This document shows positions 455 to 31,200 of a DNA stretch of 64,000 nucleotides, piece after piece; the stretch's first letter is position 1; every line of letters begins with the position of its first letter. Where the stretch lies: IMG/VR virus record IMGVR_UViG_3300022752_002570, positions 1 through 64,000 of that record. The stretch is one strand, 5' to 3'. The stretch comes from a virus. Both the position numbers and the translations under genes were made by a program. The notes below the pieces were generated by a model. It was not told the origin of the DNA, did no database searches, and saw only the letters and a list, made by a program, of their open reading frames with translations.

Positions 455-631
455 ATGAAAATAGGCAGTAAGTGGTACAGCAGCAATGGAGACTTATTTG
501 AAGTAGATGACATAAGAGTGATATCAGGTGAAACATGGGTTTTTTATACAAACACATTTACTATGCAAACTTATAGTTGTTTAATAGGCGCATTTACAGA
601 TAGATTTAGGGAGACTATCAATGAGAATTGA
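455..631 (+). CDS. small hypothetical protein (58 aa, not in ORF track)
   Basis: ATG at 455 after [38 protein letters not shown]...[12 protein letters not shown]. Fills the gap and overlaps the guaC start. Confidence 0.6.
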
Positions 632-1697
632 AGATGACATTAAAATAGACTTCAAGGACGTTCTCATTCGTCCTAAACGTTCAACACTTTCAAGTCGTAA
701 AGAAGTTGACTTGGTTAAATCTTATCGGTTCAAACATAGTGGTTATGAATACCAAGGTATTCCTATCATGGCCGCTAATATGGATGGTGTAGGCACTATT
801 AAGATGGCTCAGGCCCTACATCGTCATCGCCTATTCACCTGCCTGGTGAAATCATATAACGCAGACATTGAAAATTTATCAGAGTTGCGAGTTGCCAAAG
901 ATAATTATGCTGTCAGCACAGGAACCAGTGATGAAGATTTTCGTAATCTACGGGCAGTAATTACAGGTCTAGGTGCTCAGTTTATCTGTATTGATGTAGC
1001 CAATGGTTACTCAGAACACTTTGGAGATTTTGTCGAACGTGTAAGAAAGCAGTTTCCAGATAAAACAATTATAGCAGGTAATGTGGTTACCGCAGATATG
1101 ACACAGGAGTTAATTTTACGTGGAGCAGATATTGTTAAAGTGGGCATCGGTCCTGGGAGCGTTTGCACAACTCGTATTCAAACTGGCGTTGGGTATCCTC
1201 AGCTTAGTGCTATTATTGAGTGCGCTGATGCTGCTCATGGGCTTGGTGCTCATATTATCGCAGATGGAGGGTGTACCTGTCCTGGTGACATAGCAAAAGC
1301 ATTTGGCGCAGGCGCAGACTTTGTAATGCTAGGCGGTATGTTTGCTGGACATGATGAAGGTGGTGGAAAACCCATCTATAAATCATATCTAACCAATGAA
1401 CTAGATAATAAAACCGGAGAACCCTATGTTGATACACAAGATTTTGTGGAATTCTACGGTATGAGTTCAGACACTGCTATGAGCAAGCACCACGGCGGAG
1501 TTGCTGAATATCGTAGCAGTGAAGGTAGAACTGTGGAAATTCCCTATCGCGGTAGTGTTAATGAAACCGTGCTGAATATACTAGGTGGGCTACGAAGCAC
1601 CTGTACCTATGTTGGCGCAGAAACTCTAAAACAATTGCCAAAATGCACTACCTTCATCCGTGTTAATCGTCAAATCAATGATGTCTTTGTTAAGTAA
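621..1697 (+). CDS. guaC: GMP reductase
   Basis: [24 protein letters not shown]-terminus, [11 protein letters not shown], catalytic loop [31 protein letters not shown]. Confidence 0.95.
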
Positions 1698-6357: not shown

Positions 6358-7440
6358 ATGTCTAAAGAAATTTCTACTAGCCGCACTGTAACTCCTAATG
6401 AAGCCAAGGCAGCACTTCGTAAGGCCATTATCAAACAGCGCCCAATTTTTATGTGGGGTCCTCCAGGTATTGGTAAGTCAGATATCATCAAGCAACTTGG
6501 CGAGGAACATGATCGGGAAGTTATTGACGTCCGTTTAAGCCTTTGGGAGCCTACTGATATCAAAGGTATTCCCTATTATAATAGCCAGGCCAATACTATG
6601 AGTTGGGCACCACCTGCAGAACTGCCCAGCGATCCAGATAGTACCGCTATTTTATTCCTAGATGAGTTAAACTCTGCGGCGCCTGCTACTCAGGCAGCGG
6701 CTTATCAACTTATTTTGAATCGTCGTGTGGGAACTTATATCCTGCCCAAAGGCGTGGCTATTGTGGCTGCTGGTAACCGCGAGACTGACAAGGGCGTAAC
6801 TTATCGTATGCCTGCTCCGTTGGCTAACCGTTTTGTTCATTTGGAATTGCGAGTAGATTTTGAAGATTGGCTTCAGTGGGCTACCCTTAACAAGGTACAT
6901 GAGCAGGTTGTAGGCTATGTCGGTTTTGCCAAACAAGACCTCTACGACTTTGATCCAAAAGGTTCAAGTCGCGCATTTGCCACACCCCGTTCATGGTCTT
7001 TTGTAAGTGAACTTTTAGAAGATGACGACATCAGCGAAGGTACCCTAACTGATTTAGTTGCAGGTGCTGTAGGTGAAGGTCTTGCTGTTAAGTTCATGGC
7101 TCACCGCAAGGTTGCCAAGCAGATGCCCAAACCTGAACTTATCCTTAAAGGTGAGGTCAAGAAGTTTGATATCAAAGAAATTTCAGCAATGTACTCTCTA
7201 ACTATTAGCCTTTGCTATGAGCTCCAAGAAGCAGATAAGAAAAAGGTTAAAGGCTGGGATGCTATGGCAGACAACTTCTTTGGATTTATGATGGACAATT
7301 TTCCAACTGAGTTGGTTGTTATGGGTGCCAAAGTTGCTCTAACCAATTATGCTTTACCGTTCGATGCCAGCAAGTTAAAGAACTTTGACAAGTTCCATGA
7401 CAAGTATGGAAAATATATCATACAGGCCATGGAAGGTTAA
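6358..7440 (+). CDS. MoxR-like AAA+ ATPase
   Basis: Walker A GPPGIGKS, Walker B LFLDE, sensor AAGN, PLANRF arginine finger, TPRSW. Confidence 0.9.
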   Translation: MSKEISTSRTVTPNEAKAALRKAIIKQRPIFMWGPPGIGKSDIIKQLGEEHDREVIDVRLSLWEPTDIKGIPYYNSQANTMSWAPPAELPSDPDSTAILFLDELNSAAPATQAAAYQLILNRRVGTYILPKGVAIVAAGNRETDKGVTYRMPAPLANRFVHLELRVDFEDWLQWATLNKVHEQVVGYVGFAKQDLYDFDPKGSSRAFATPRSWSFVSELLEDDDISEGTLTDLVAGAVGEGLAVKFMAHRKVAKQMPKPELILKGEVKKFDIKEISAMYSLTISLCYELQEADKKKVKGWDAMADNFFGFMMDNFPTELVVMGAKVALTNYALPFDASKLKNFDKFHDKYGKYIIQAMEG

Positions 7441-7442
7441 TT

Positions 7443-7462
7443 TAAGGGCCCTAGGGCCCTTA
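7443..7462. terminator. perfect 20-bp palindrome/hairpin after the AAA+ gene
   Basis: TAAGGGCCCTAGGGCCCTTA immediately after the stop codon. Confidence 0.6.
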
Positions 7463-7466
7463 TTAG

Positions 7467-7495
7467 TTGACTACGGACTAAAAAGAATATATAAT
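7467..7495 (+). promoter_or_regulatory. sigma70-like promoter
   Basis: TTGACT(7467-72)-17 nt-TATAAT(7490-95), followed by AAGGAG SD. Confidence 0.8.
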
Positions 7496-7520
7496 TGTAT
7501 TATACATTAAGGAGTAAGTT

Positions 7521-8780
7521 ATGACCTCAGTTATAAAACCCGAACGTCAGTCTAAAAAAGATTGGTCTAAACAAGAATTTAGTGCTTCAGAAAAAGCCAA
7601 AATTTTAGATAAATTGATTACAGCACGAGTAGGATTGCTACTTCGTCATCCGTTTTTTGGCAATCTCGCTACTCGTATGAAACTGGTAGATGCCAGCGAC
7701 TGGTGTGCTACTCTTGCCACTGACGGACGTAACTTCTACTTTAATTACGGATTCGTTAATAAACTCAATCCTAAAGAATGTGAGTTTGGGTTTGCACACG
7801 AAGTTCTGCATAATGTATTTGATCATATGGGTCGTCGCGAAGGACGTGATCCTACTCTTTCTAATATTGCGGCAGACTACGCTGTTAACCAAATTCTCAA
7901 GGATGAGAAAATTGGTGCCGTTCCTACGTTCCTTAAGATTTTCCAACATGACAAGTACCGTGGAAAATCTTATGAGGAGATTTATCAGGATCTCTATGCC
8001 AATGCGGAAAAAATTAATATTGGAGAACTAGGAGAACTGCTAGACGAACACTTAGACGACAGTGAAGGGCAAGGGGAAGGGGAAGGGGAAGGTTCTAATA
8101 ATGGTAAAGGTCGTCCTAAACTTACTCCAGAGGAACGTAAACAGATCCGCGACGAGATCAAAGAAGCAATGGTTGCGGCTGCTCAGACTGCAGGTGCAGG
8201 CAAAGTGCCTGCAGGGGTTAGCCGTCTTATCAAAGACTTCACAGAGCCCAAAATGGATTGGCGTCAACTGTTAAGAATGAATATTCAAAGTATCTTAAAA
8301 AGCAATTTTAGTTTTGCTCGTCCGAATCGCAAAAGTCAGCACTCCGGTGCCATATTACCAGGTATGATAAACGAGGAAACTATTGACGTATCAGTTGCTG
8401 TTGACATGAGTGGTAGTATTTCAGATCAACAGGCCAAAATTTTTATCAGTGAAGTAAAAGGTATCATGGAAGAGTACGTTGACTTCAAACTAGACATTTG
8501 GTGTTTTGATACAGAAGTCTACAGTTATGCCAAATTTAGTTTAGAAAACGCAGATGACATTAACCAGTACGAAGTCAAAGGTGGTGGAGGTACAGATTTT
8601 GAAGCCAACTGGACGTTTATGAAGGATAATGATATCACTCCTAAGAAGTTTATTATGTTTACAGATGGATACCCTTGCGGTAGTTGGGGTGACGAGGACT
8701 ACTGTGATACACTGTTCATTATTCACGGTAACGACTCTATTATTGCTCCGTTTGGCCAAACTGCACATTTCAAAGAATGA
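7521..8780 (+). CDS. HEXXH metallopeptidase-like domain plus vWA domain protein (DUF2201-type), MoxR partner
   Basis: ATDG, AHEVLH, NIAADYAVN. MIDAS motif DMSGS, GGGGTDF, FTDG. Confidence 0.85.
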   Translation: MTSVIKPERQSKKDWSKQEFSASEKAKILDKLITARVGLLLRHPFFGNLATRMKLVDASDWCATLATDGRNFYFNYGFVNKLNPKECEFGFAHEVLHNVFDHMGRREGRDPTLSNIAADYAVNQILKDEKIGAVPTFLKIFQHDKYRGKSYEEIYQDLYANAEKINIGELGELLDEHLDDSEGQGEGEGEGSNNGKGRPKLTPEERKQIRDEIKEAMVAAAQTAGAGKVPAGVSRLIKDFTEPKMDWRQLLRMNIQSILKSNFSFARPNRKSQHSGAILPGMINEETIDVSVAVDMSGSISDQQAKIFISEVKGIMEEYVDFKLDIWCFDTEVYSYAKFSLENADDINQYEVKGGGGTDFEANWTFMKDNDITPKKFIMFTDGYPCGSWGDEDYCDTLFIIHGNDSIIAPFGQTAHFKE

Positions 8781-9067
8781 GTATTAAAAGAGGACAGATA
8801 AACCCGCTAGGTGTTCTGGGGCTAAGGAAAATTTCCTTTATCCCAGAACATTTTGTTAAATTGAGTGTGCCTAAAAATGTGGATATCAGATCTATAGAGA
8901 GATGGATAGAAACAAACTTAAATAGTCGGTATGCTATACAATCAAATTTTAAGGTTGGTAGTGATAATAAACTAACTAATATTATAGAAATAGGATTAGA
9001 AGATCCTAAAGAATTAACCCTACTAAGTTTAGGGTGCCAATATCTTCACAAAGAGAGGACATTTTAA
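8777..9067 (+). CDS. hypothetical protein
   Basis: 96-aa ORF with ATGA overlap. Confidence 0.65.
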   Translation: MSIKRGQINPLGVLGLRKISFIPEHFVKLSVPKNVDIRSIERWIETNLNSRYAIQSNFKVGSDNKLTNIIEIGLEDPKELTLLSLGCQYLHKERTF

Positions 9068-9270
9068 TGGAAGAGCAAAAGACAGAGCAACAGCCTGAAC
9101 AACCCAGTGTACCGGAATTGACTATCACAGATTTAATTAATCTTAGGACAATTATCGATGTGGCGGTTAAACGAGGTGTATTCGGTGCAGGCGAAGTTGC
9201 AGGTGTAGGTACTGTATATAATAGATTAGATTCATTTATTACAGCAGTCACACCCGCTAAATCAGAATAA
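9067..9270 (+). CDS. hypothetical protein
   Basis: Start at 9067 (GAGGA SD, TAATG coupling) is preferred to 9034. Confidence 0.65.
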   Translation: MEEQKTEQQPEQPSVPELTITDLINLRTIIDVAVKRGVFGAGEVAGVGTVYNRLDSFITAVTPAKSE

Positions 9271-9280
9271 AGGAAACCCT

Positions 9281-9925
9281 ATGAAACATGTAGGTAAGAT
9301 GAAAAGCAACTCTGCTAGAGTAGCAGTAGTTTATAGAACATTGCCAAACGAGCATATGAATGCTCTAGTAGTTGGAACAAACGGTTTGCCAGATGCTTAT
9401 CATGACAGTCTTATGAGTGTAATCGAAAGCGAAGCAGGACAACAGGCAAATGAATTAGCAGACATCCTGGCAACTAGACGTTTCCCAGATGGTGAAGTAA
9501 TGCTTAGTTGGTTACACACAAGGGGTCAGTTGAAAAAAGTTCCAACTAACCTAGTTCTTATGACTCCGAATAATCAAACGCAGATTCCTTTGGATAAACT
9601 AAATGAAATCATCGCAGAACAAAAAGGCGTCAGTGTAGAAGAACTAGCGGTCACAGACGGCAGTCAGAAAAAAGAAAAAACTGCCAAATCAAAAGAAGAA
9701 GTTGTAGTTCCGCCTGCCGATGATCCTGAATACAAACAAATGGTGAACGAAGCGCCTTATCATCCAGGCTATGAAGGTGCCGTGTTTGATAAACCAGTCA
9801 CAGCATCAGACCTACGATCAATGGCTGATAAACTGTTCAAAGAAGCACAGGCTCTGCGTAAGAAAGCAGAAGAGATGGAACCAACGAAGAAAAAAACTAA
9901 AGCAGATAAAGTAGAGGCAGAGTAA
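9281..9925 (+). CDS. hypothetical protein
   Basis: 214-aa ORF, AAGGA SD, charged C-terminal helix. Confidence 0.75.
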   Translation: MKHVGKMKSNSARVAVVYRTLPNEHMNALVVGTNGLPDAYHDSLMSVIESEAGQQANELADILATRRFPDGEVMLSWLHTRGQLKKVPTNLVLMTPNNQTQIPLDKLNEIIAEQKGVSVEELAVTDGSQKKEKTAKSKEEVVVPPADDPEYKQMVNEAPYHPGYEGAVFDKPVTASDLRSMADKLFKEAQALRKKAEEMEPTKKKTKADKVEAE

Positions 9926-10098
9926 TGTTTAAGGTAGGCGATAAGGTTCAAAAGGTGTCAGGCTATCTATGGCCTGGCATTGTGGTAAGTGTATTTGATA
10001 CACTAGCAGGCGAACGAAGAGTAGTTGTAGAATGTACAGTACCTGAAATAAAGGGCGCACTGCACATTTACAATGAATCTCAATTGAAACTGCAATAA
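9925..10098 (+). CDS. DfrB/R67 (type II) dihydrofolate reductase-like SH3-fold protein (57 aa, not in ORF track)
   Basis: MFKVGDKVQKVSGYLWPGIVVSVFDTLAGERRVVVECTVPEIKGALHIYNESQLKLQ* matches the R67 pattern F-x-x-GD-x-V-x-K-x-SG-x-x-W-x-G-x-(I/V)V...VE...G-x-(VQ/LH)IY. TAATG-coupled on both sides, directly upstream of thyA. Confidence 0.7.
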   Translation: MFKVGDKVQKVSGYLWPGIVVSVFDTLAGERRVVVECTVPEIKGALHIYNESQLKLQ

Positions 10099-10979
10099 TG
10101 TCAGAGCGTTCTTATCTAAATTTACTAGAAACTATACTTGCCCAAGGTGAACAACGGGAAGATCGAACAGGTACAGGTACTCTCAGTATATTTGGTCCGC
10201 AACTTCAATTCGATCTTACTCAAGGATTTCCTGCAATAACTACCAAGAAACTGGCATGGAAATCTGTAGTAAGTGAACTCCTATGGTTTATTGAAGGCAG
10301 CAATGACGAAAATAGACTTAGGGAAATACTTCACGGTGAGAGGTATAGCGATAAAAAAACTATTTGGTCAGATAACGCTACTGCTCCTTACTGGACAAAT
10401 AAACGACTGGCACGACATCAAGGTGACTTAGGCAGAATTTACGGTGTACAGTGGCGCAAATGGCGCAAACCTCTAATTAGAATTAATAAAGTAGTACTTC
10501 AAAATCACGATCAGTTATTAGAATTAATTGAAGGAATTAAAAAAGATCCCTATGGTCGCAGGCACATTATAACAGCATGGAATCCAGGTGAATTAGAATT
10601 AATGGCATTACCTCCATGTCACATGATGTCACAATTTTATGTTTCCAAAGACGGTGGACTAAGTTGTCATATGTACCAGAGATCTGCGGATATGTTTTTG
10701 GGAGTGCCTTTCAACATTGCTTCTTATGCCTTGTTCACCCATATGATTGCACAGGTCTGTAATTTACATGCAAAACAGTTAATTATATCATTTGGTGATG
10801 CTCACGTATACTGCAATCATATAGATCAAGTTCGTGAACAACTGACAAGACAGACTCTAGCGATGCCAAGACTAGAACTAAACCCTTCTATTACAGACAT
10901 TAACAAATTTACAATGGAAGATGTTAGTCTTATTAATTATGAAAGTCATCCTGCCATTAAAGCAGATATGGCAGTTTAA
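10098..10979 (+). CDS. thyA: thymidylate synthase
   Basis: DRTGTGT, ELLWFI, LGRIYGVQWR, RRHIITAWNP, LPPCH, YQRSADMFLGVPFN, GDAHVY. Confidence 0.97.
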   Translation: MSERSYLNLLETILAQGEQREDRTGTGTLSIFGPQLQFDLTQGFPAITTKKLAWKSVVSELLWFIEGSNDENRLREILHGERYSDKKTIWSDNATAPYWTNKRLARHQGDLGRIYGVQWRKWRKPLIRINKVVLQNHDQLLELIEGIKKDPYGRRHIITAWNPGELELMALPPCHMMSQFYVSKDGGLSCHMYQRSADMFLGVPFNIASYALFTHMIAQVCNLHAKQLIISFGDAHVYCNHIDQVREQLTRQTLAMPRLELNPSITDINKFTMEDVSLINYESHPAIKADMAV

Positions 10980-12265
10980 ACCATTACTTCGATTCTATCG
11001 TCATCATCTTTAGAATCTTCTAGGGCTTTTCCTAATACAGCACAAGGATGATCGTTATCAGCAGCCGCTTCTGCATAACCTGGTTTAGAACTTGTTACAA
11101 GCAATTGCCCTTTTTTAACAGGTCCATTAACCTTACACAAAACTCTGCCCTTTAAGGCTACGAACGGATGTGTATTGTTTTCTCCTACATCTTCATTCAT
11201 TCTAAATGCAGGATGTTTAGAAATAATACCAGCAACTGATGTATCTGCTCTTTTATTTGTTACTGTAATTTCTTTTTCTCCACCAATTACAACAACGGTT
11301 CCATATGTATAAAAATTGTCTGCTGCATATCTTTCTGCTAAATCTGCATAGAGAGAACTACTGGCAATAGTGCTTAGAACTCTTGTTACTGGATTGTATT
11401 GCAACCCAGTGTTAGCATATACAACAGCAGAACTTGTGCTTGTGCTTAGAAAAGGAACAAAATACGGCTTGTTAGCACTACCCTGGGACGATAATATTTC
11501 TTGATAGGCCATCGATGAAGCATATGTAGCAGTTGATGCAGTTAATGAATGTAATGCTTCTGCTGCTGTTCCCCAAAAATAACTGTCTGTCGCTAGACCT
11601 GTGACTTCTTTTCTAGTAGATCCTGTAACTGCATCTGCGCCTACTAGGGTTATACCTCTAACCAACCTAGTTGTTGTAGGATATATAGGGTATTCTCCTG
11701 GATCACTTACCGATTCAGACGCAGGAACACTATAGGTTTCCTGGCTAACTATGGCAATAACTTCATTGGCGCTACCAATTACTGCCTTAATATTATATAT
11801 AGGCAAATCTAAAGAGTTAGCATTGTACTCAAAATCACCTCGCCACTGTGCTCGTGTATCAGATCCAATTGGGGGTCCTACGGTTATGTAGTCTGATCCA
11901 TCAAAAACATTAATTTGTTTTTTAGATTTGTTATACCACAAGTCACCTTCACGGGGATTTTTTGTAGAACTTGGTATATTGCTTTCAGTAGCGATTTCTA
12001 AATTTGCAACGCCTTTCCAGTATTGACTGTCATAGGCATACAGTCGTTTTTCCGTAGTATTATACCACAATTGCCCTTCAATTGGCTTACTTGGTGCGGA
12101 TGTGTTTGCAAAATTTTCCAGTAATTTTAAGAAATTTTCATTTTGAATCTCACCGTAACCAGCATAGTTCTTTCCTACAAATAATAAATCGGTTGTTTGA
12201 TCTAGACTTGCATCCTGTACTGTGGATAAAATTGTTCCATTAGTTTTATTAAGTATGTACGGCAT
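10976..12265 (-). CDS. tail fibre/baseplate-associated protein with C-terminal chaperone-like domain
   Basis: N-terminal GKNYAGYGE..NENFLKLLENFA..P..GQLWY module. C-terminal YADLAERY...VALKGRV.CKV.G.VKKG.LL...G.ALE resembles intramolecular-chaperone domains. Confidence 0.7.
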   Translation of the reverse strand: MPYILNKTNGTILSTVQDASLDQTTDLLFVGKNYAGYGEIQNENFLKLLENFANTSAPSKPIEGQLWYNTTEKRLYAYDSQYWKGVANLEIATESNIPSSTKNPREGDLWYNKSKKQINVFDGSDYITVGPPIGSDTRAQWRGDFEYNANSLDLPIYNIKAVIGSANEVIAIVSQETYSVPASESVSDPGEYPIYPTTTRLVRGITLVGADAVTGSTRKEVTGLATDSYFWGTAAEALHSLTASTATYASSMAYQEILSSQGSANKPYFVPFLSTSTSSAVVYANTGLQYNPVTRVLSTIASSSLYADLAERYAADNFYTYGTVVVIGGEKEITVTNKRADTSVAGIISKHPAFRMNEDVGENNTHPFVALKGRVLCKVNGPVKKGQLLVTSSKPGYAEAAADNDHPCAVLGKALEDSKDDDDRIEVMV

Positions 12266-19204: not shown

Positions 19205-22200
19205 TTATAATCCTTGTAATAAATCACCATCATCTTCTGTCAATGGGGCGTTAGTTTCATCTGTAAGTTCTAAATTGCCTCCATAGTAGTAAGAACTTGG
19301 TAACTGTGCAGGACCTTTACGTAAGAATTTGGCCTGTGTGCTTGTGCTTACTAGTATAGAAGCAGTTGAAATATCCCATACTCTGCCTTTACGTTGAATA
19401 ACAGTAATTTGAGTTCCTGGAACAATTTCTTCGCTAATATTTAACAATAATGTCTGGCTTGTGTCAACTTCAATGGTATATTCAGGCGGTAAAACATCGT
19501 AACTACTAGTTGTTTCATTATTGTAATATACGCTAGAGGTTGTATCATATGCTCGTTCATTATAGTGTAACTTAAGTTCTGTTTTTCTTAATTTTCTACC
19601 ACCATAATATACATCTACTTGATCTACATATGCAGGTACATACCCATGGGTACTTGTGGTTAATAGACTAATACCACTTCCTGCATGTGTTGTAGTGTTT
19701 ATACTAAATGAACTAGTATTGGTAACTGTGCTGATATTATACAACGTTAAGTATGTAGTTGGAATATTTTGAATGTTTACTGTCTCTTCTGTATAAACAT
19801 TCTGCTTAACACTTTGATCAAATACCAACGTGCCTTCTGCAGAATACCACGGAGTTCCAGTTCCAAAGGTTCCTCTCCTTAGTTGTGTTAGTTCATTACC
19901 GTTCTTAACAAAGTATTCAATTCTTTCACCGTCTATAAAGACTACACCCGGAATATTTTTGCTAGGATTGGGACTAAACAGCATACTTCCATCTTCAACA
20001 TGAATACTGTCATCATAATAGTTTAATGGATGTGCAAGTTTTGTACTAAAGAAATTTGAAACTCTCCTGAATGACTGTCTATCAAAAATATCCTTGAATA
20101 ACCTATAGGCAATAACAGTGTTATCATAATTTGCTGGATTAACTGAAACAATCACTACCTTTGAACCAGTAGTCATCGGAACATCATTACCTATGACAAT
20201 TGTTTGTAGATCTGGCTTTACATAAAAATCGTAGCCTGCAATCAATGCCTTATCATTTGCTGTAACCCAAATATAATTTTCATTTATAACAGGCATATCT
20301 AATGTATACTCATTATTGTGCGTACGATCAAATCTTTCTGTTCTTAGTCCCATTCCGTCATGATCTGTGAAACTTGTTACCTTAATAGCACCACTAGTAA
20401 CAGCATTTTTCAAATATAAAATTCTATTAATGATAACATAATCATAATCTGTTAGATCCATAATTGCAATGACATCATTAAAAGCAACTACATTTTGTAT
20501 TATTGTAATAGTCTCTGTGGCAGCATTTACAACAAAATCGAATCCAGGACGAATCTCGTATCCATTAACATACACCTTGACATTTTGGTTGTTATATGCA
20601 GCACCAGACTTGTTATTATTAATATCAAAGGTTAATTGATTACCTGTAATTTTATAATAACTGGTATCAGGAGGTAACAATCTTGTTCTAGGTGAATAAG
20701 GATTTCCTGTAAGTTTTTCAACTATGACCTGTGTACTGATAGGTTCTAAGTTGAAAGGAACAGGATCTAATGGTATGCTTACAGTTGATGTAGAAATATT
20801 GTAATAAGTTTCTTTAATTCTATTAAAGGTATCAATACGATTTCTAAAGAACCAAGCAGTAACTTCGTTCCTTCCGGCAGCAATTTCGTTTACAGTAATC
20901 TTAGCTCGTTTGTTTACATTGCCGACTGGTTCTAAAACATAGCCAAGTCCAGTTCCTACAGAATAAGGACCTATTTGCTGATTTCCATTTAATTGTACAA
21001 AAACACTTCCCACCCCGTTAAAGGGCATATCACTTATCAATGTAGCGGTTTGTGTAGAAGTTGAATTCACATAGACATATTGGCTATCTAATCCAGTATC
21101 TGAACTTGCCGTTACATATGAATATCCAATTCTACCGCCAACTGTCTGTGCTCCAATGGTAATTCTATTACCTTCTAGAAAATAAACCTGATTGTCTAAA
21201 TCAAAAGGTAATGGATAGTTGTCTACTCTGGAAAGTGGTTTACCGTTAAAAGTTACAATTAGTCCTGCCGGTATTTCATCAGTCACCAATTGAAGAGTAG
21301 CAGTTGTTTCCTGACCTGCGATGTTATAGATTACTCCATTAAACATTATAGGACTAATTCTTTCTGGCCTTGTATACACAGTGATAGACAAACTATCTTT
21401 AGTGTCGCCGGGAACAAATTCTTCAGGTGCATAACTTCTAAATGGATTGATTAAACCGTCTGGATTAAAAGACGCATTAATTTGAGTGCTCTCAGCAGAT
21501 ACTTTAATATTTGCTTCAACTGATTCTAAAGTGTTATTGCCATCTACAATAGTTTGCACCCAGTAATCTAAACCTACCTGATCTGCGTGTCTATACAAGT
21601 ATCTTAGATAATATCTGTCAATAGCGTCGGCATAGTTTGATGCAGTAGAACCAGGAACATTTGTGGTTAGTTTATAACCATAATATTGTCCAACTGGCTT
21701 AATCCAGCCCCCTCCTTGAACAATATTATCTGTAGCAGTTGTGCCCAATGCAGATGTTTTTATACCATTGGTATACTGTCCACCGTCTAAGTTTACAGTC
21801 AATTGGTCTGGACTTAAATTATATTTCCAAAAATCTATATCTGTGTTTCCAAGAATAGTTACCGTTGCTGTTGTACGAACACTAGGATTCAGACCTGAAA
21901 TATTAACTATTGCTCGTTGAACTGTTCCTGAACTAGATGCAATATACCAAGATGGAGATCCTGAACTAAACGAAACTGTGGCTGTGGCTATCTGTGAATA
22001 AAGAGCATATGTGAAAATTTGTAAAGTCGACGTACCTGTTGAACTCTGTACTACCTTGTCAAGCACAGATGTTATGCTTGAAATAGTTGATAAAATGCTG
22101 AGAACACGGGCTGTTGCAGGTGTGCTTAACTGTGTAGTTGTTGAACTCAGTACCTGTGTTGCTGTAGTATAGAACTTATTATTTGTTGTAGTTGAAACAA

Positions 22201-25200
22201 CATATTGTCCATTATACCCTCCTGTTATAATTCCATTTATTAACACAACATCGCCTACTTTAATATCACCTCTAAATTGTTTCTTAGTTGTAAATTCAAT
22301 TAAAGATCCTATTGAGGTATCAGTAGATAACACGGTTTTTAAATCGTATACAGGACTACTAATTGTAATTACGTTAGTAGAAGAATCAATTTCAGTAACA
22401 ATAGTCTCAGGTCTAATCTTAATTGTACTGGTATTTCCGATAATAATACTTTGACCAGTTGTTATACCTGTAGTGGTATTAACAGTAATTGTAGTTGCAG
22501 TTGTATCAATGTCCTGCAATAATTTAACAGTTACCAATTCACTTACAATATCATCCCAAGGTGCAGAGTCATATGTAGTAGTTCCCCAAGGAGCAGTTTG
22601 ATCAAACATCATACCTTCATAAGTTGTTAATGGATAATCTAAACCTGATACTAGATCTGTTAGATTATCTGCTAACATTCCCGGAGTAGGACTATAATAT
22701 TGTTCAATCCTGTCTACTGCATTGAACAATTTAATATTTTTCTTGTAAATAACTTTAAATGTTTGACCTGCTAATGGCACAGATTTAAGAAGTGTTAATC
22801 TTGTAAATTCCTTAGTATATAGACCTTCATAATCTTCTTTATAGTATTCTAGTTTATAATCTGTTGCAAATACAAGTTTACCATCTATAGTTGGCGTAAT
22901 TGTAGATTTATCGGGATTTGCCAACCATGTTAATACAAAACTATTTTGTTCACCTGTGCAATCAAACTTATCTGTAACATAGGTATCGGTGATTTCTACT
23001 CCCTTGCTTATACGATCAAATCGTAAACCTATCTTATTCTTACGAATTGTATCGTTGTCCATAACGACAGATAGAGCAGCGGGAATTACTCCTGCGCCGC
23101 CACCCGTTAATTGTGCCACAGGTGCGAATACATATCCAGATCCAGGATTAGTTACAATAACCTTGTAAACTTTTCCTGCCCTTATAAATGCTTCTGCGGT
23201 TGCCCCTGTACCATAATCACCGTTTACAGTTATTAATTCAACAACAGGTCTTTGAGTATAATTTTGTCCACCATCCGCTACAAGTATTTCCTTAACATAG
23301 TAAGTATAATTGTCTGTCCAATATTTCCAAGGATAAACATTTGTTAATGTGTTTGTCAATGTAAACACTGTGGCAGAAGTAGTACTTAATATAGTAATAG
23401 GTTTGTATTCGTTCAGTGTTTGATCATACACAGTAGGCAAGTCAAAATCAGTTATGTTTCCGTCATAAAATTCTATTGTGTTGTACTTAGAATTATAATT
23501 TCTAATTTTGGTATGATAAGGCTTAATTTCTTTTATATAATCTTCAAAATATTGTTCATTATCTAACTTGTAAACTGGTCGCTGGTCTAATACTCCAAGA
23601 TCAGTAACTACATTTACAAAAGAAGTTTTGAATGCCCAATCTAACAATTTTTGTTCTGTGAGAGCGTATCTCACAGCCACAAAAAATAACAAATTCCAAT
23701 TAACTTTAAGATCGCCAACAAAAAGATCATTTTTTAAGGCTGTTAAAATGTTACGTAATTCAATAGTATTTGATTGATCATATAAATTGTCTGCAAGTCC
23801 TGCTTCATCATAATTGTCAGCGGCCTCTGCATCGTTCCATACTTTATCTAATATTTTAATAGTACCATCTTGTACATAAACTGAATTGAAATACTTTGTG
23901 AAGTTTCCGTTGTCGCTTACCTTTTCAACAATTACGTATTTTCCGTTACCATTGTTATTAATTTTTATATAAGTTCCGTCAGTGGTATCGTTATATAAGG
24001 CAATGTCACTAGGAATACCTACAACATAGGAAAATATCTTATATTGATTGTAGTTACTAGCAGACCAATCTATATAATCCCAATAATCTTCTGTTCTAAA
24101 TTTTTGTGTAGAAACCTTAAACCAGGTTTCGGATGCATTGTTATATTCGTGAACAGTCCACCTGCCTCCGTCATCTGGGTTGCTGGTTAAAATTGCAGTA
24201 AATGGTCTCACTTCTAATAACGGAGCCGTAGCATATTCAGTTCCTGCGTTTGTGATATCCACACGAATTATCTTACCAGACTCGTCTAAAACAGAAACTA
24301 GTTCTGCACTTGTATTAGTATCTTTAATGGTTACTACTGGTGCAAATATATATCCCTTACCGCTATCAATAACATTTACATTATCTATCTTTCCATTATT
24401 GACTGTACATGAAATAACTGCCTGTCTAATATTGGATGTATCTATACTGTCTAACTCTAGAATAGAATCTATGAGAATGTCATATCTCCCTTCAGACTCT
24501 GAAGGAATTTCATCTTTAAGAAGAAGTGTATCTAGTTCATACTTGCCTACTATCTGTTCTTTGCTTAATACATCATTTGAGAATACAACTATATTTCTAA
24601 GGGCTTCTACTCTGTCCTTAAATAATGTCTGCTGCGGTCTGATTCCTAAACCGTATCTATTTCTAAAAGATAAAATAGGATCAGGAACAGGATTACCAGA
24701 AGTATCTTCTCCTAGTAAACTATCAAATAATTTCTTTTCTAATAAGGCATTAGGTACGCTATTTTGATTGCCTTCATTTAACAATAACCACTCTGTGTGC
24801 CTTGGAATAGGATTGTCATAGGTAAAGGACATGTTGGCACTTATTCTATTATCAACCAATAAAGGCTGTACATTTGTAAATGCCACAGAACTAGAACTTA
24901 ATACTTGAACAAATTTAACACCATTGGCCTGCGGATCTGCGATTAGATTAGCGACTTGATAAGAACTTAATCTTCTATTCTTAACATCTGGTAATAAAAG
25001 TTTATTCTTTACCCAGAAATAATAAACATTTTCAAAACTACCTGTAACAGCATTGAATATCTGCTTAACGCTTACTACATCGTTAGCAGGATACTTTGGT
25101 TGACCACTTATACCGTTTGAGGTACCCTGATTAGTATCTGCCTGTGCAGCCCAGGCACTTGGTAAGAGATCTGAACGCACCCATTCGTAGATATCTATAG

Positions 25201-28200
25201 TAGCACCAGGAAATAATTTGCCCCAATTATTCTTCCTAAAGATATCATCGCCTTGTTCATACCAAATGTACTTTAAGGTGCTGAGATCCCACCATAGTTC
25301 ACCAACATGATCATCTAGCCAATTATTTTTATCATCAACAATATTACCTGGTCTACCTATAGAGTAGATGGCAGGATCTGAAGGTGACTTATACTTGATT
25401 TCTTGCTCCGCCAATCCAGAAATTTTGCCCTTTAAAGGATCTATAAGTTCAAGATATTCAGATACTTCCTCTTTGTAAGAATCAATAAGTGCTATTCTTT
25501 CAATACTCGAAATGTCTACTAAATCAGGCTGTTGATGCTTAACTGTCAATATTTCAGGCATATCAAAAACAAATGCCATGCTATTATCTGTTCCTGTAGA
25601 CAATTTATTAAATGGTGCACCAACATAAGAATATTTGTTTGTTGAAACTACATCAAATCCATATTTGCTACCTTCTTGTATGGCAGTATCAACTATTTCA
25701 TTTCCAGGAACAAAATAAGTTCCTAGTCTTTGATAAGCATAAACTGTTCCAGAATCTGGAATTAGATCCTTGAACTTGGTAGTTCCGCCATCGAATGTAG
25801 TGATACCAGATTTTGAATTTTCATCAAATTTAATTTCAATTGATCTATTTGTGCCTAAACCGCTAATTAATAATTTTGTTTCTGCTTTGTTTAATGATAG
25901 GCTATGCCCAAATCTTAAATCACTTCCGGCTATAGGGTTGTCTATGGTCTGTAGCAACGAGTAACGTCTATTCGTTCCTAATTGATAGACCTTAACACTT
26001 CCATAACTTGTATCAAGATTTCTATAATCCGGAGCACTAACTACAAGATATTTTCCTGTATAAGAAATAATTTGATCTTTACCAAAATTACCACTTGTAC
26101 CGTAAGGACTAAAAATAGTTTGGTTGTGATATATTCCGTTATTGATAAATCTAAATATCTGTACCAAACCTGATGAATTTTCGTCTTTGTAACCGGGAGC
26201 ACTGACTGATATATAAGTTCCTGTACTATTACCGCTTACCTTGTAACCCCATTGATCTCCAACCTTTAGTGCTACGCTAGATGTTGATAAAACATTTAGG
26301 CCTGACGCAAAAGCACCAATTTGTAATCCATTATTTTTTCTAATTCTGTAGGCAAATACATTGCCTGTTGTACCTGTACTAATATTTGTGCTTGTTGAAG
26401 AAATCACACTTGCAGTAGACCCTGTACTCATAGCAAAGGTAACTGATGTTGGATATACATAAAGTTGGTTACCAACACCCTCTGTGCCCGGAGCACTTAC
26501 AATCAATAAGGTCGATGCACTAGTCGTTGCTTCATTAATATATATTGAATGGCCAAATCTTACTTTGTTAGATGAGGTTGAGTATTGTCCTAAAGGATTT
26601 GTTAGTACAGCTTCAACTACTTCTGCATCATTATAAGGCCCTATGCTACTGATCTTTACCAATCCTTCATCATCAAAAATTCTTGTAGCACTAGTAAAAG
26701 TTCCGGCGGTAGAATATACAGTGCTAGTAGTAACACCTACTGTCATATTCCATGTGACTTCTTCCGGGCTAGCAATAAAGGCATTAGACCCTACCGCCTC
26801 TCCAGAGGATGAGGTAACTGTAGCAGAATTGCTAACAAGTATGTCTATAGAAAAAGTTACATTAGTAGGTCTAAATTCTAAACTAGATAGTCCTTTGACA
26901 TTACTTGCTCTAGGTGCTCCTATAATTAGATAATTTTTACCAACATCATAGGCCATTGCATAACCAAATTCTGTAGGCTTAGCAGGATTGCAGTATTGAA
27001 TATCGTAGGTGTTTAATGTATACTCAAACAGTTTAGTGATACTTTGATCTATCCTGTCATAGACCTTGACCCTTCCATAACTCTGAGTAGCGGTTGTATT
27101 AAAATTAGGAACCGCTACTAGGAATTTGTCAGTGTTGTCTGCTGCCCATATTGTGTATCCTAACTCCTGTGCAGAAGGACTGTCAACAGACCTTATGTAC
27201 TCAACAGGAAATTGATTGCTTTTTTCATAGACTTGCCATCTATTGTCTATCCCGCTATCAACCCATATAAGTTCACCTTCATCGAGATCGAATAACTGTT
27301 TTTTATTTCGTAGATCACTAAGTCTTGTAAATCTAGCAGATTCAAAAACAAATAAATTTCCATAGGCAAGCTGCTCTTGATTTTGAATACTGGTTAAACT
27401 TGACTGAACTGTAAACTGACTTAATTGAGGGACAGATTCAACAATATAAACTCCATTTACCTGTTCATTGAAATTTACAATAGAAACAATATCACCCACT
27501 GATAGATTGTGATGTAAATTAGTACTAAATGTAATATTAGCACCAGGAGCACTTACATATACACCTGTTACTTTGGCTTTATTTTTAGAATATCTATAAA
27601 CAGACCAATCTCCATTTTCTAAAAATCCTGTCCATATAGTCGATCTATTTTGTATCTGATTGTTCTTTGCTATATCTAGCAGACTATTTTTATTATATGC
27701 TGTAGCAGTAACATCATCTAATCTTACATAACCTGCTGTTGAAAGAATTATTCCTGTTTCATTATAGGTTCCGCCGGGACTATTTGGAGAATCTAAAAAT
27801 GTCCCTCCAGGTACAATTGTAGACTCTGGAGTGATCACTGGAAATACATTACTTGATGAATAGTCTTGTGGAGTCAATAGTAAATCATTAGGTGTTACAT
27901 AGTTTTCCAATGGACCGACATCTGTAGGAACCTGATCAGCAAACTTAACAAGATATGGATTTTCTAAAGTAGTACCTTCTGGGAGAGTAAATTCTATTTC
28001 ATCATAGTTACTGAATCCACCGTAATATCCTGTTCTAAATGCCCATTCTTCTGTAAATGTAACTTCGCCCTTATTAAGATATCTACTGGCCTTTGATAAT
28101 TTGTCAATGGCATTTTTTGTGCCTTTGTCTTTAATGAATCCTTGATAGAATTTATATTGACTGATAGGGTTTGTGAAAATATTATTGAAGTATGTTCTTG

Positions 28201-31200
28201 GGGTATAACCGATAAGATGCTGTGCCAATTTTTGTTGTCCAGCGTCAAAGTTATCAATATCTAAACTGTAAAAGTCTTCAAACTGATTTATTTTATAATC
28301 AAAGTTAGGCAATAGATCAGGTACAGGTTTTTCGTTAAGTAAAGACCATTTCTTGAAATCAAAATTAGTGCTAGGCTCAATTCTTTTGTTTGCCTGATAA
28401 TACGAACCATTATATCTTACAATGTCCCCTATGGTATAATTCTTTAGCGAACTCCAATCAGTTATAATTAGATTATCATAAACGAATCCAGGACTGTAAA
28501 AATCTCCGTTCCAGTTTTTAGTTCTAAATCCTGAAAGTTTGACCCTTCGTTGTTTATATCCTGTTTCAATATCATATATAGTATCATTAAAAACAGTAGT
28601 ATTATTAAAAACTATAGCATGTTCTTTTTGTATAAGAACTAACTTAACAAAAAATATTCCTTCTTCGGTATTTTTTGTTTGTATTCTACAGGCACTGTCT
28701 TCTCTTATTAAACTAAAATTTTCAATAGGGAATGACTTGCCGTCGGCTTTTAATAAGTTGTATGCGAACCGTCCTGTCTTAACATCATCAACTATGCTGT
28801 TATCGTAAAAATACTTGAACGCATTTGCAAAGGGACTCAGTGTAATGATATTTCCGTCAGCCCAGTTTTGTGTACACCAAAATAAAAATTCTTTAGCACT
28901 GTATTTCCAGTCTATATTTTGTTCTAAGTCTGTAGAATAATCATCAAAAATAAAACCTTCTTGCTCTAAAAATTTTCCGTAGCCGGTAATAATATCATAA
29001 ACCTCTTGTATTGTAGGAATTTCAGAACCATAAAAGTATCTAGTTGTTGTAGGGCTAAACTTTCTAGAAGTTTGAACAGTGACACCGCCTTTTAATGGCA
29101 AAGTAGTCAATGAATACCATAAAGATGAATCAAAAGTACTTCCCGGATTATGACCAACTTTAGATCTATAAAATCTATTATTGTATCTAACTATTTGACC
29201 TTCTCTATAAAATCTAGTTGTAGGCGATGCATTTGCTGTAGATGTTTCAGATGCGGTTAATTTTAAATTTTTATTTTGAGTAATACCAGACCATTCTGTA
29301 AAATCTTCACTTATTCCACCAACTGTTAGCGCAGGAGAAGTCGCTTCTTTAAAAGGTAACAGTACATCAAAATAAGGCTTTTCTAAATCATAACCCTTTA
29401 AAACAAATTTGCCATTTTGTTTCTGAATTATCATACCTGATGCAGAAGCAATTTTTACAGGATTACTTACATTGAGAAATACATTGTAATCTTCATAAGG
29501 TACAACTAGTCCCGGACTTGTTGAAACTGGATCAACTGAATCAATATTAATCTGTAGTTTTTCTTTACTGGTAAATCCACCCAGTTTGTAAAATAGGTTG
29601 TAATCTAGATTATCTAAATCTTGTCGCAAACTTTGTAGATAATTTTGATTTTTTAATTTTCCTGCTTCTATAACCATTATACTATAACCAGAACTTTGAT
29701 TATTATTTTCTCCGTCTAAAATAATTTTACGTGGATCTAAATATAAATCATCTTCTGTGTAAGTTACTTGATTTTTTATGTTTAAAGCAATCCTACTCGT
29801 ATCAAATAATGCACTTAGATAATCTGCAGGATTTAATAATAGACTTATAATATTGACAGCGTATGGCCAGTAACTACTATTCTTCCATGCTGTTTCAGAA
29901 GGTGCGCCGTCTCCGTAGATCCATCCTAATATTTTAACATTGTCTGCATTGTTTGAAACTACTGCTAGAGGTCCTACTAAATTTCCAGAACTATCAACAG
30001 GATTAATTGAAGCAAAATTAGGTCTTGCGTATCTTATATTGTATTCATCAGATTCGGTTGGATCAGAAACTTTGCCTTGAACTATAGCGTCAATTAAATC
30101 TGCTCTTTTAACATTATCTACCCACTCATAATGAGTATCCCACCAGTTAGGTTTTATTGCAAATCCCAACATCTCCCAAGGATGACTATGTGGTCTATCA
30201 GTATCAAAGAAATAATTGTAAATTCCTCTCCAATAGGACGGAACTTCCTCAGCAAATATCTTGTCAACAGACTGAGTATAATTATAGGTAAATTCATTAC
30301 CGTAATCAAATGCTGTATTAGTTTTTATATCTACATTGTTGATACCAGCCCAAAAACTAAAATCTACATTAACAATATCTTGTGAAGGTCTAAATAAACT
30401 TCTATTCCTAAATGCTCCAGGAATACCTGCTCTAACATCATAAATGTTAGGTTGGTACTGAACTTTAATATTATTGTAGATTCTTTTCTCAAATTCTAAA
30501 ATAATATCGTCTCTGTAGTCACCATAGGCAACTAACAAACTTCCATCGTGTCCTCTTATTAAATCTACATTTTGATCTATGTAAGTGTCGTCTGTAAATA
30601 TTTCTGGCTCGTACTTAGGATACAGTCCTAATTTTGTAGGAGTCGGCGGAACAAAACACCCTAAGGTGTTTGAATATACAAGTATTTCAATTTCATCATT
30701 TACAGATAAAGACAAATTAAAAGAAACTTCATCGATATTAATAAAATAATCTGTATCATAAATTAATTGATCACCATTTAAGTAAACTAATACTGATTTA
30801 AAAGATAACGCTGATAAACTAAAATCTATACCAATTGGATAATCCGTAACAGCAGGATTAGTTACAGTATAATTTTTAACAGTCTTATTATCTCCATAAC
30901 CTAGCATATCTGATCTATAATATGCAGAATTAAAATCTTTAGTTAAATTAATTTCTTTTAAAATTTGATCAACAGCCTCAGCATGTGTTATGTCAGCACT
31001 AACAAAAAGTAGTTTTCTTAAAAAGTTGTCTTTAAATTGTAGATAACTATTTCCCACTTTTCTTAATGCATCAACTACATTATGTTCTGATTTTCCTAAG
31101 AAAATAGATGCAAACGACAATGGGTTACTGTTAACAATAATACGTGTACCATATTTTGTATAACCTACAACATCTCTCAAATTAGTGCCATCATAGTTAA

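Follow-up and report, generated by a model that had tools for sequence, protein, structure and literature searches.

The window analysed here, 64,000 nucleotides long (positions 1 to 64,000 of IMG/VR virus record IMGVR_UViG_3300022752_002570), carries an open reading frame (ORF) of 57 amino acids (aa) directly before thyA, the thymidylate synthase gene. The ORF listing of the window placed it at 9925..10098 on the + strand with an ATG start. This ORF is a real gene, and its product is, with near certainty, a distant but genuine homologue of the R67/DfrB dihydrofolate reductases (DHFRs) in the wide sense. It very probably encodes a putative DfrB-type (type B, R67-like) DHFR of the LHIY "cluster II" kind, and we consider it likely that the protein is an active, trimethoprim-insensitive enzyme serving the ThyA of the phage. 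The gene lies in the slot that folA occupies in sister phages. It is a further example of the phage DfrB enzymes published by Lemay-St-Denis et al. (Mol Biol Evol 2025, PMC12486381), and the alternation of folA, a DfrB-like gene and an empty slot before thyA seems to go beyond the main text of that paper.

Homology of the 57-aa protein to R67 dihydrofolate reductase

The initial annotation had described a 57-aa ORF joined to both neighbours by TAATG overlaps, and the ORF listing and the sequence confirmed this description. At the upstream junction, the TAA of the 214-aa ORF (9923-9925) shares a base with the ATG of the dfrB-like gene (9925-9927). At the downstream junction, the TAA of the dfrB-like gene (10096-10098) overlaps the ATG of thyA (10098-10100) in the same way.

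A total of 188 proteins matched the 57-aa protein at E ≤ 0.01. The best 120 of these 188 matches were 75–100% identical to it and 57–85 aa long, and none carried a functional name. The profile search of 1.84 billion representatives returned 1289 clusters (50% identity) at E ≤ 1e-3, of which 378 reached E ≤ 1e-10. In a comparison with 80 viral loci, codon positions 1, 2 and 3 showed 0.268, 0.166 and 0.578 differences per site, as expected of coding DNA that is under purifying selection. The conserved relatives and the third-codon-position divergence thus identify the ORF as a real gene. Its length, 57 aa and under the usual gene-calling cut-offs, would suit an open frame arisen by chance between two genes, but this explanation is already refuted by the 188 close relatives and 1289 clusters, by the concentration of divergence at third codon positions and by a confident fold prediction (predicted local distance difference test, pLDDT, 97.2), and its probability is negligible. 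The search for longer or fused forms found four proteins of 104–176 aa, none of them fused to ThyA, although this word-limited search is weak evidence. The 176-aa relative is 71% identical to the 57-aa protein and carries PF06442 on record.

The only Pfam match of the 57-aa protein was DHFR_2 (PF06442, E 0.0065) and the only NCBIfam match was trim_DfrB (NF000331, E 0.0012); FolA-type DHFR_1 (PF00186) was not matched. The kinship with R67 that had been claimed also appeared at the profile level. The family profile, built from 149 members, found only R67 DHFR chains in the PDB: all four matches at E ≤ 1, representing four distinct sequences, were of this kind, among them 2p4t (E 4e-5, the best) and 1vie (E 8.5e-4). 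DHFR_2 was matched by 53 of the 149 family members at E ≤ 0.01 (best 1.1e-6) and was the only family to recur. The hhalign comparison with a phage protein annotated as R67 DHFR, which has the VQIY motif, gave a probability of 95.9% and an E-value of 5.9e-9. Since the profile-level homology is significant and specific to R67/DfrB, the protein belongs to the DfrB family in the wide sense.

Residues 2-53 of the 57-aa protein were aligned by HMMER with residues 8-57 of the 2p4t chain. The initial annotation had aligned the protein to R67 by eye, with equivalents of K32 and W38 and with LHIY in place of VQIY, and HMMER reproduced these pairs: K10 with K32, W16 with W38, and L46-H47-I48-Y49 with V66-Q67-I68-Y69, assuming a chain-to-R67 offset of 16 that agrees with the residue numbers given in PMC9835603. 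The conservation of K10 in the family is at least 90%. The catalytic DfrB clusters I and II have Lys or Arg at position 32, where the phage protein has K10, and a B4 strand of nonpolar, polar, nonpolar and aromatic residues, which here reads LHIY. The motif and the identity range of the protein fit cluster II as PMC12486381 describes it.

The AlphaFold2 model of the protein has five strands. The top seven Foldseek matches in the PDB were all R67 DHFR, with template modelling (TM) scores of 0.80–0.82, root-mean-square deviations of 2.0–2.1 Å and 30–32% identity. The next matches were PWWP, CAP-Gly and Tudor domains, which have other SH3-like folds. The prediction with four copies yielded a single complex, with interface scores (ipSAE, interaction prediction score from aligned errors) of 0.88, 0.88 and 0.90 against 0.01 for the best of three controls; the partner pLDDT was 94 and the runs shared at least 95% of contacts. 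The mark of the tool was reached by 20 of 30 solved pairs and by 1 of 23 single chains in calibration, counts that are only rough here because this was a four-copy job with a custom alignment. One predicted interface runs strand to strand (residues 19-28, 32-38 and 44-48, with the symmetric pairs 22:22, 34:34 and 48:48), and the other places loop L1 (13-17, including W16) against loop L3 (37-45). These two interfaces correspond to the B2-B2 and L1-L3 layout that defines a DfrB1-like tetramer in PMC12486381, where a program other than ours was used. The predicted tetramer shows likeness to DfrB1 and is not proof of assembly.

Compared with R67 DHFR/DfrB1 (1vie, 2rk1), the phage protein has the same five-stranded SH3-like fold (TM about 0.8), keeps the equivalents of K32, W38, I68 and Y69, and is predicted to form the same two types of interface. 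In contrast, its identity to R67 is only 30–32% and its Pfam and NCBIfam scores lie below the cut-offs. W45 is replaced by Val, at a position that PMC9835603 reports as not conserved among distant homologues. The phage protein also has a two-residue insertion before the B4 strand and lacks the disordered tail that precedes it in R67 at the N-terminus (about 20 residues). That the R67 Q67H mutant 2p4t gives the best sequence match in the PDB follows from the His that occurs naturally in place of Q67. The setting differs as well: the R67 gene sits in an integron or plasmid resistance cassette, whereas the gene described here sits among phage metabolic genes.

The slot before thyA in sister phages

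The T4-type arrangement has a FolA-type DHFR (frd) beside thymidylate synthase (td). The initial annotation had placed a DfrB-type enzyme in the frd position, and the comparison with sister phages upheld this, since folA occupies the same slot in many of them. The thyA-anchored survey found 271 IMG/VR relatives, of which the best 80 loci were kept, with ThyA 69–79% identical to that of the window. The 214-aa gene was upstream of thyA in 79 of these 80 loci, and the remaining locus (L163) has no upstream sequence. The slot between the two genes contained folA in 27 loci, a DfrB-like gene in 2 and nothing in 51. The slot ORFs of the folA loci were 158–164 aa long, and all ten that were tested matched PF00186 (E 1e-34 to 1e-42). 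One folA record is a complete genome of 322.5 kb with terminal repeats.

The two reductases were never found together. FolA was detected in none of the 46 records with a DfrB-like gene, and a DfrB-like gene in none of 18 folA records, by a search that was positive in 5 of 5 controls. The DfrB-like gene has the same position and presumed role as frd in T4. The enzymes themselves differ: the folds are unrelated, the DfrB-like protein is one third the size of the FolA-type enzyme, and an obligate tetramer with a single pore stands against a monomer with a tailored site.

One empty locus (L146; G052:C1:67878-67982, minus strand) retains, just upstream of thyA, 34 residues from the N-terminus of FolA (about 2858-2962; 21.8 bits, in a 47-aa open frame), a remnant that looks like a deletion scar. 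A maximum-likelihood ThyA tree of 90 rows showed the slot states interspersed. They required at least 16 changes, and the DfrB-like state at least 4 by well-supported branches; these counts are rough because the tree was built from ThyA itself with a quick method. The nearest ThyA neighbours of the window carry folA. It was also considered that empty-slot phages keep a DHFR elsewhere. This was not borne out: neither a DfrB-like gene nor a full FolA was found in any of 18 such records, which are 11–41% complete.

Because of the 16 or more slot changes, the folA in the nearest ThyA relatives and the 34-codon folA remnant, the place where the 214-aa gene meets thyA may have seen repeated exchange of DHFR cassettes, in which the unrelated FolA and DfrB types displaced each other or were lost several times. 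The LHIY type, with more than a thousand clusters at 50% identity, might then be a mainstream reductase of freshwater phages, and trimethoprim-insensitive DHFRs might be long-standing metabolic genes of phages and not a recent invention for resistance. We put the chances of this broader reading at about even. If it is true, the locus catches non-orthologous gene displacement in situ, and the small phages without thymidylate synthase described below would rely on that of the host as partner of their LHIY-type reductase. The words "displace", "in place of" and "jumbo" are absent from the main text of PMC12486381, and its supplements may list close relatives; that main text does not seem to describe folA and dfrB alternating at a single slot. 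Closely related phages with folA, a DfrB-like gene or nothing before thyA, and never both reductases, provide a line of evidence that it does not seem to contain.

Proposed function and distribution of the family

We propose that four SH3-like protomers would form a D2 tetramer. The B4 strand (LHIY) would line its central pore and K10 would guard it, and there NADPH (reduced nicotinamide adenine dinucleotide phosphate) and dihydrofolate would come close enough for hydride transfer. The stop/start overlaps make it probable that the dfrB-like gene is translated with thyA from one message. For each deoxythymidine monophosphate (dTMP) made, the phage ThyA releases dihydrofolate, which the product would turn back into tetrahydrofolate, and the gene fills the position of the FolA-type DHFR of sister phages.

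The published work gives this proposal its frame. Lemay-St-Denis et al. sorted 386 DfrB homologues into five clusters (PMC12486381). The cluster II enzymes, with the B4 motifs LHIF, LHIY and QMIA, are reported there to form tetramers, to reduce dihydrofolate and to make E. coli resistant to trimethoprim. Both the LHIY and the LHIF enzymes are listed as active, trimethoprim-resistant tetramers (Table 1 of that paper), and the DfrB-TS fusion with thymidylate synthase (TS), which has LHIY, reached a kcat/KM of 0.08 s−1 µM−1 compared with 0.10 for DfrB1. For 139 of the 148 homologues tested, the AlphaFold-multimer prediction and activity were in agreement; 114 of the 123 predicted tetramers were active and the remaining 9 were not expressed. 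Of the 20 viral homologues that the paper counts, the 4 that fall in cluster II all lie near a ThyA gene, one at 5 bp, in genomes without FolA, and a role in dTMP synthesis was hypothesised for them.

The phage protein described here resembles the cluster II proteins A0A6J5PTB3 and DfrB-TS of that paper in its short SH3 fold (theirs with roughly 24–35% local identity to DfrB1, ours with 30–32% to R67), its LHIY/LHIF B4 motif, its Lys32 equivalent and its predicted DfrB1-like tetramer. The ThyA neighbourhood in DNA phages without FolA and the proposed dTMP role are also common to them. Unlike DfrB-TS, the copy in the window is unfused and overlaps thyA by one base. The LHIY-type family found here comprises 1289 clusters at 50% identity, compared with the 20 viral homologues of the paper. 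The initial annotation had suggested a natural role in phage dTMP supply. Since PMC12486381 reports ThyA-side cluster II enzymes together with the dTMP hypothesis, this suggestion coincides with the published one, which has been partly tested there; for the gene in the window, we infer the activity. The gene is one more well-supported case in line with the 2025 proposal of a native metabolic role for DfrB-type reductases in phage dTMP synthesis.

Association with thyA was seen in several lineages. The homologue-anchored survey found 84 IMG/VR relatives, of which 80 loci were kept, and thyA was directly downstream of the homologue in only 8 of them; the 214-aa gene was upstream in all eight. 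Pelagibacter phage Kolga gp36, annotated as "hypothetical" (L001 2713-3165, 150 aa), has a C-terminal DfrB-like domain and ends 5 bases ahead of thymidylate synthase. An unannotated homologous ORF lies directly before thyA in Rhizobium phages RHph_N1_10 and RHEph10 (L002 3001-3156; L004 3001-3141), and in Ruegeria phage Tedan the homologue is not directly before thyA. Three unrelated phage groups carry a DfrB-like gene directly before thyA. The association that the initial annotation claimed accordingly stands for the window, for the 8 of 80 loci, for Kolga and for the Rhizobium phages, but it is not general for the family.

Other neighbours of the homologues included a MazG/PRA-PH-like pyrophosphohydrolase, an HhH-GPD protein and an ATP-dependent DNA ligase. 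The MazG/PRA-PH-like ORF (119–159 aa) was among the two nearest flanking ORFs in 21 loci (L009, L013, L016, L020, L022-L025, L037, L039-L043, L045, L048-L050, L055-L057), where it was directly downstream in 15, second downstream in 5 and upstream in 1. A nucleoside triphosphate pyrophosphohydrolase fused to a DfrB domain is mentioned in PMC12486381. The most fitting view of the family is that of a reductase module which stands on its own and which a number of phage lineages have set beside thyA.

Several observations weigh against a DfrB-type DHFR that serves the phage ThyA. No ThyA was found in the available flank of 72 of the 80 homologue loci, 6 of which have fewer than 900 bases downstream. 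Among the 45 records of at least 25 kb with a homologue, 7 had ThyA; the ThyX and FolA searches included the record of the window (46 in total), and ThyX was found in 1 of 46. For the nine homologue records that are at least 90% complete, the counts were 0 of 9 for ThyA and 1 of 9 for ThyX. Record G014 has its DfrB-like gene 135 kb from thyA. FolA (PF00186) was not found anywhere in the 81.9-kb record of the window, which is only about 23% complete, so FolA could lie elsewhere in the phage genome. The 57-aa protein scored 16.7 bits with DHFR_2, below the curated cut-off of 25, and 18.7 bits with trim_DfrB, far below the cut-off of 137; by these curated models, it is not filed among the named DfrB resistance proteins. 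Owing to the small size of the protein, Foldseek gave only weak E-values (1.4e-3), and the passing tetramer prediction may reflect the memory that the model has of solved R67 tetramers. In addition, one assayed cluster II enzyme that also has His at this position (LHIF) catalyses poorly and is inhibited by NADPH; PMC12486381 describes it as "more of a binder than a catalyst".

Eight of the nine near-complete records are phages of 35–61 kb without ThyA, ThyX or FolA (L063, L066, L067, L068, L070, L082, L083 and L087; G029-G033, G040, G041 and G045). Their copies are intact and LHIY-type, with all hallmark residues kept. With no ThyA in the near-complete records and ThyX in only one, the family does not depend on a phage thymidylate synthase. 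One possibility is that the small-phage reductase serves the ThyA of the host.

The ninth near-complete record is a giant phage (L086/G044; 327,992 bases, 98% complete) with ThyX at 58.6 kb and its DfrB-like gene at 235 kb, a puzzling pair since ThyX releases no dihydrofolate.

The main rival explanation is a non-catalytic or barely catalytic SH3-like protein that binds NADPH, a nucleotide or folate, or associates with ThyA, without being the DHFR of the phage. The near-complete phages with neither ThyA nor ThyX and the 21 loci flanked by a pyrophosphohydrolase instead of thyA are compatible with such a binder. The DfrB homologues of clusters III–V are inactive, and the LHIF phage enzyme A0A6J5PTB3 is described as preferring to bind two NADPH over NADPH and dihydrofolate (PMC12486381). 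However, the exact LHIY motif occurs in an enzyme of near-DfrB1 efficiency, predicted DfrB1-like tetramers proved active in 114 of 123 cases in the same paper, and the gene lies in the exact folA slot of sister phages and never together with folA. We regard the binder as unlikely. A second explanation accepts an active DfrB-type reductase, but one that mainly boosts the tetrahydrofolate pool of the cell or reduces another pterin, with the thyA adjacency as an accident of a recombination-prone slot. The 72 loci away from thyA, the complete small phages that carry the homologue without thymidylate synthase and the 16 or more changes of slot content on the ThyA tree would agree with it. The TAATG overlaps at both junctions, the position directly before thyA in three unrelated phage groups and the known DfrB-ThyA fusion protein (PMC12486381) argue for a closer link to ThyA. 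This second explanation, which differs from ours in emphasis only, appears highly improbable, and a DfrB-type reductase serving the phage ThyA is the reading that we prefer.

DfrB-like genes are common in lake phages, and they are routinely overlooked or left "hypothetical" because they are short and their Pfam score is below the cut-off. That they form a practical reservoir of trimethoprim resistance, as the initial annotation suggested, is speculation, and no mobile-element context was seen here.

Gene neighbourhood and source record

The features of the locus are listed in Table 1. The thyA gene closes a + strand gene block. Its product matched Pfam Thymidylat_synt at E 4.7e-104 and scored above two equivalog cut-offs (NF002497, 347.4 bits with a cut-off of 327; TIGR03284, 342.8 bits). 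A dCMP/dUMP (deoxycytidine/deoxyuridine monophosphate) hydroxymethylase was considered for this gene and ruled out because both thymidylate synthase cut-offs were passed. The 214-aa protein had no family match in Pfam or NCBIfam. Promoter and terminator scans of 7000-11600 gave nothing usable (7 promoter-like sites compared with 11.9 in shuffles), and megablast of 9000-11500 against GenBank phages gave no match.

Table 1. Features around the dfrB-like gene, in window coordinates
Feature	Position	Strand	Remarks
214-aa gene	9281..9925	+	phrog_15894, E 1.7e-18, unknown function; left flank of the DHFR slot
GAGG, Shine-Dalgarno-like motif	9914..9917	+	7 bases 5′ of the ATG of the 57-aa ORF; presumed role
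dfrB-like gene, 57-aa SH3-fold protein (predicted)	9925..10098	+	LHIY pore motif; K10/W16 at the R67 K32/W38 positions
thyA, thymidylate synthase, 293 aa	10098..10979	+	Pfam Thymidylat_synt, phrog_160, two NCBIfam equivalogs
Tail-fibre-like gene	10976..12265	-	convergent with thyA

The window belongs to a virus record of 81,861 bases, which CheckV estimated as 23% complete. The record carries a T4-type portal (E 1.9e-110) and also encodes baseplate wedge and hub proteins. Amid baseplate and tail-fibre genes lies an ORF of 4651 aa (19205..33163, - strand) that matched the virion structural protein phrog_10938 (E 3.2e-301). A phage guanosine monophosphate (GMP) reductase is encoded at 621..1697 (+ strand) and scored 536 bits with the NCBIfam equivalog NF003470 (cut-off 397). 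Because of the T4-type portal, the baseplate proteins, the 4651-aa structural protein and the GMP reductase, the record is, judged by its gene content, a fragment of a T4-like giant phage, whose relatives reach 322–348 kb. The sequencing runs with large shares of the stretch were lake-water and freshwater metagenomes, and no RNA run was listed. The + strand block that ends with thyA also encodes, upstream of the dfrB-like gene, a MoxR-like AAA ATPase (AAA_3/AAA_5) and after it a putative metallopeptidase of the DUF2201 type that has a VWA-like domain (6358..8780, + strand).

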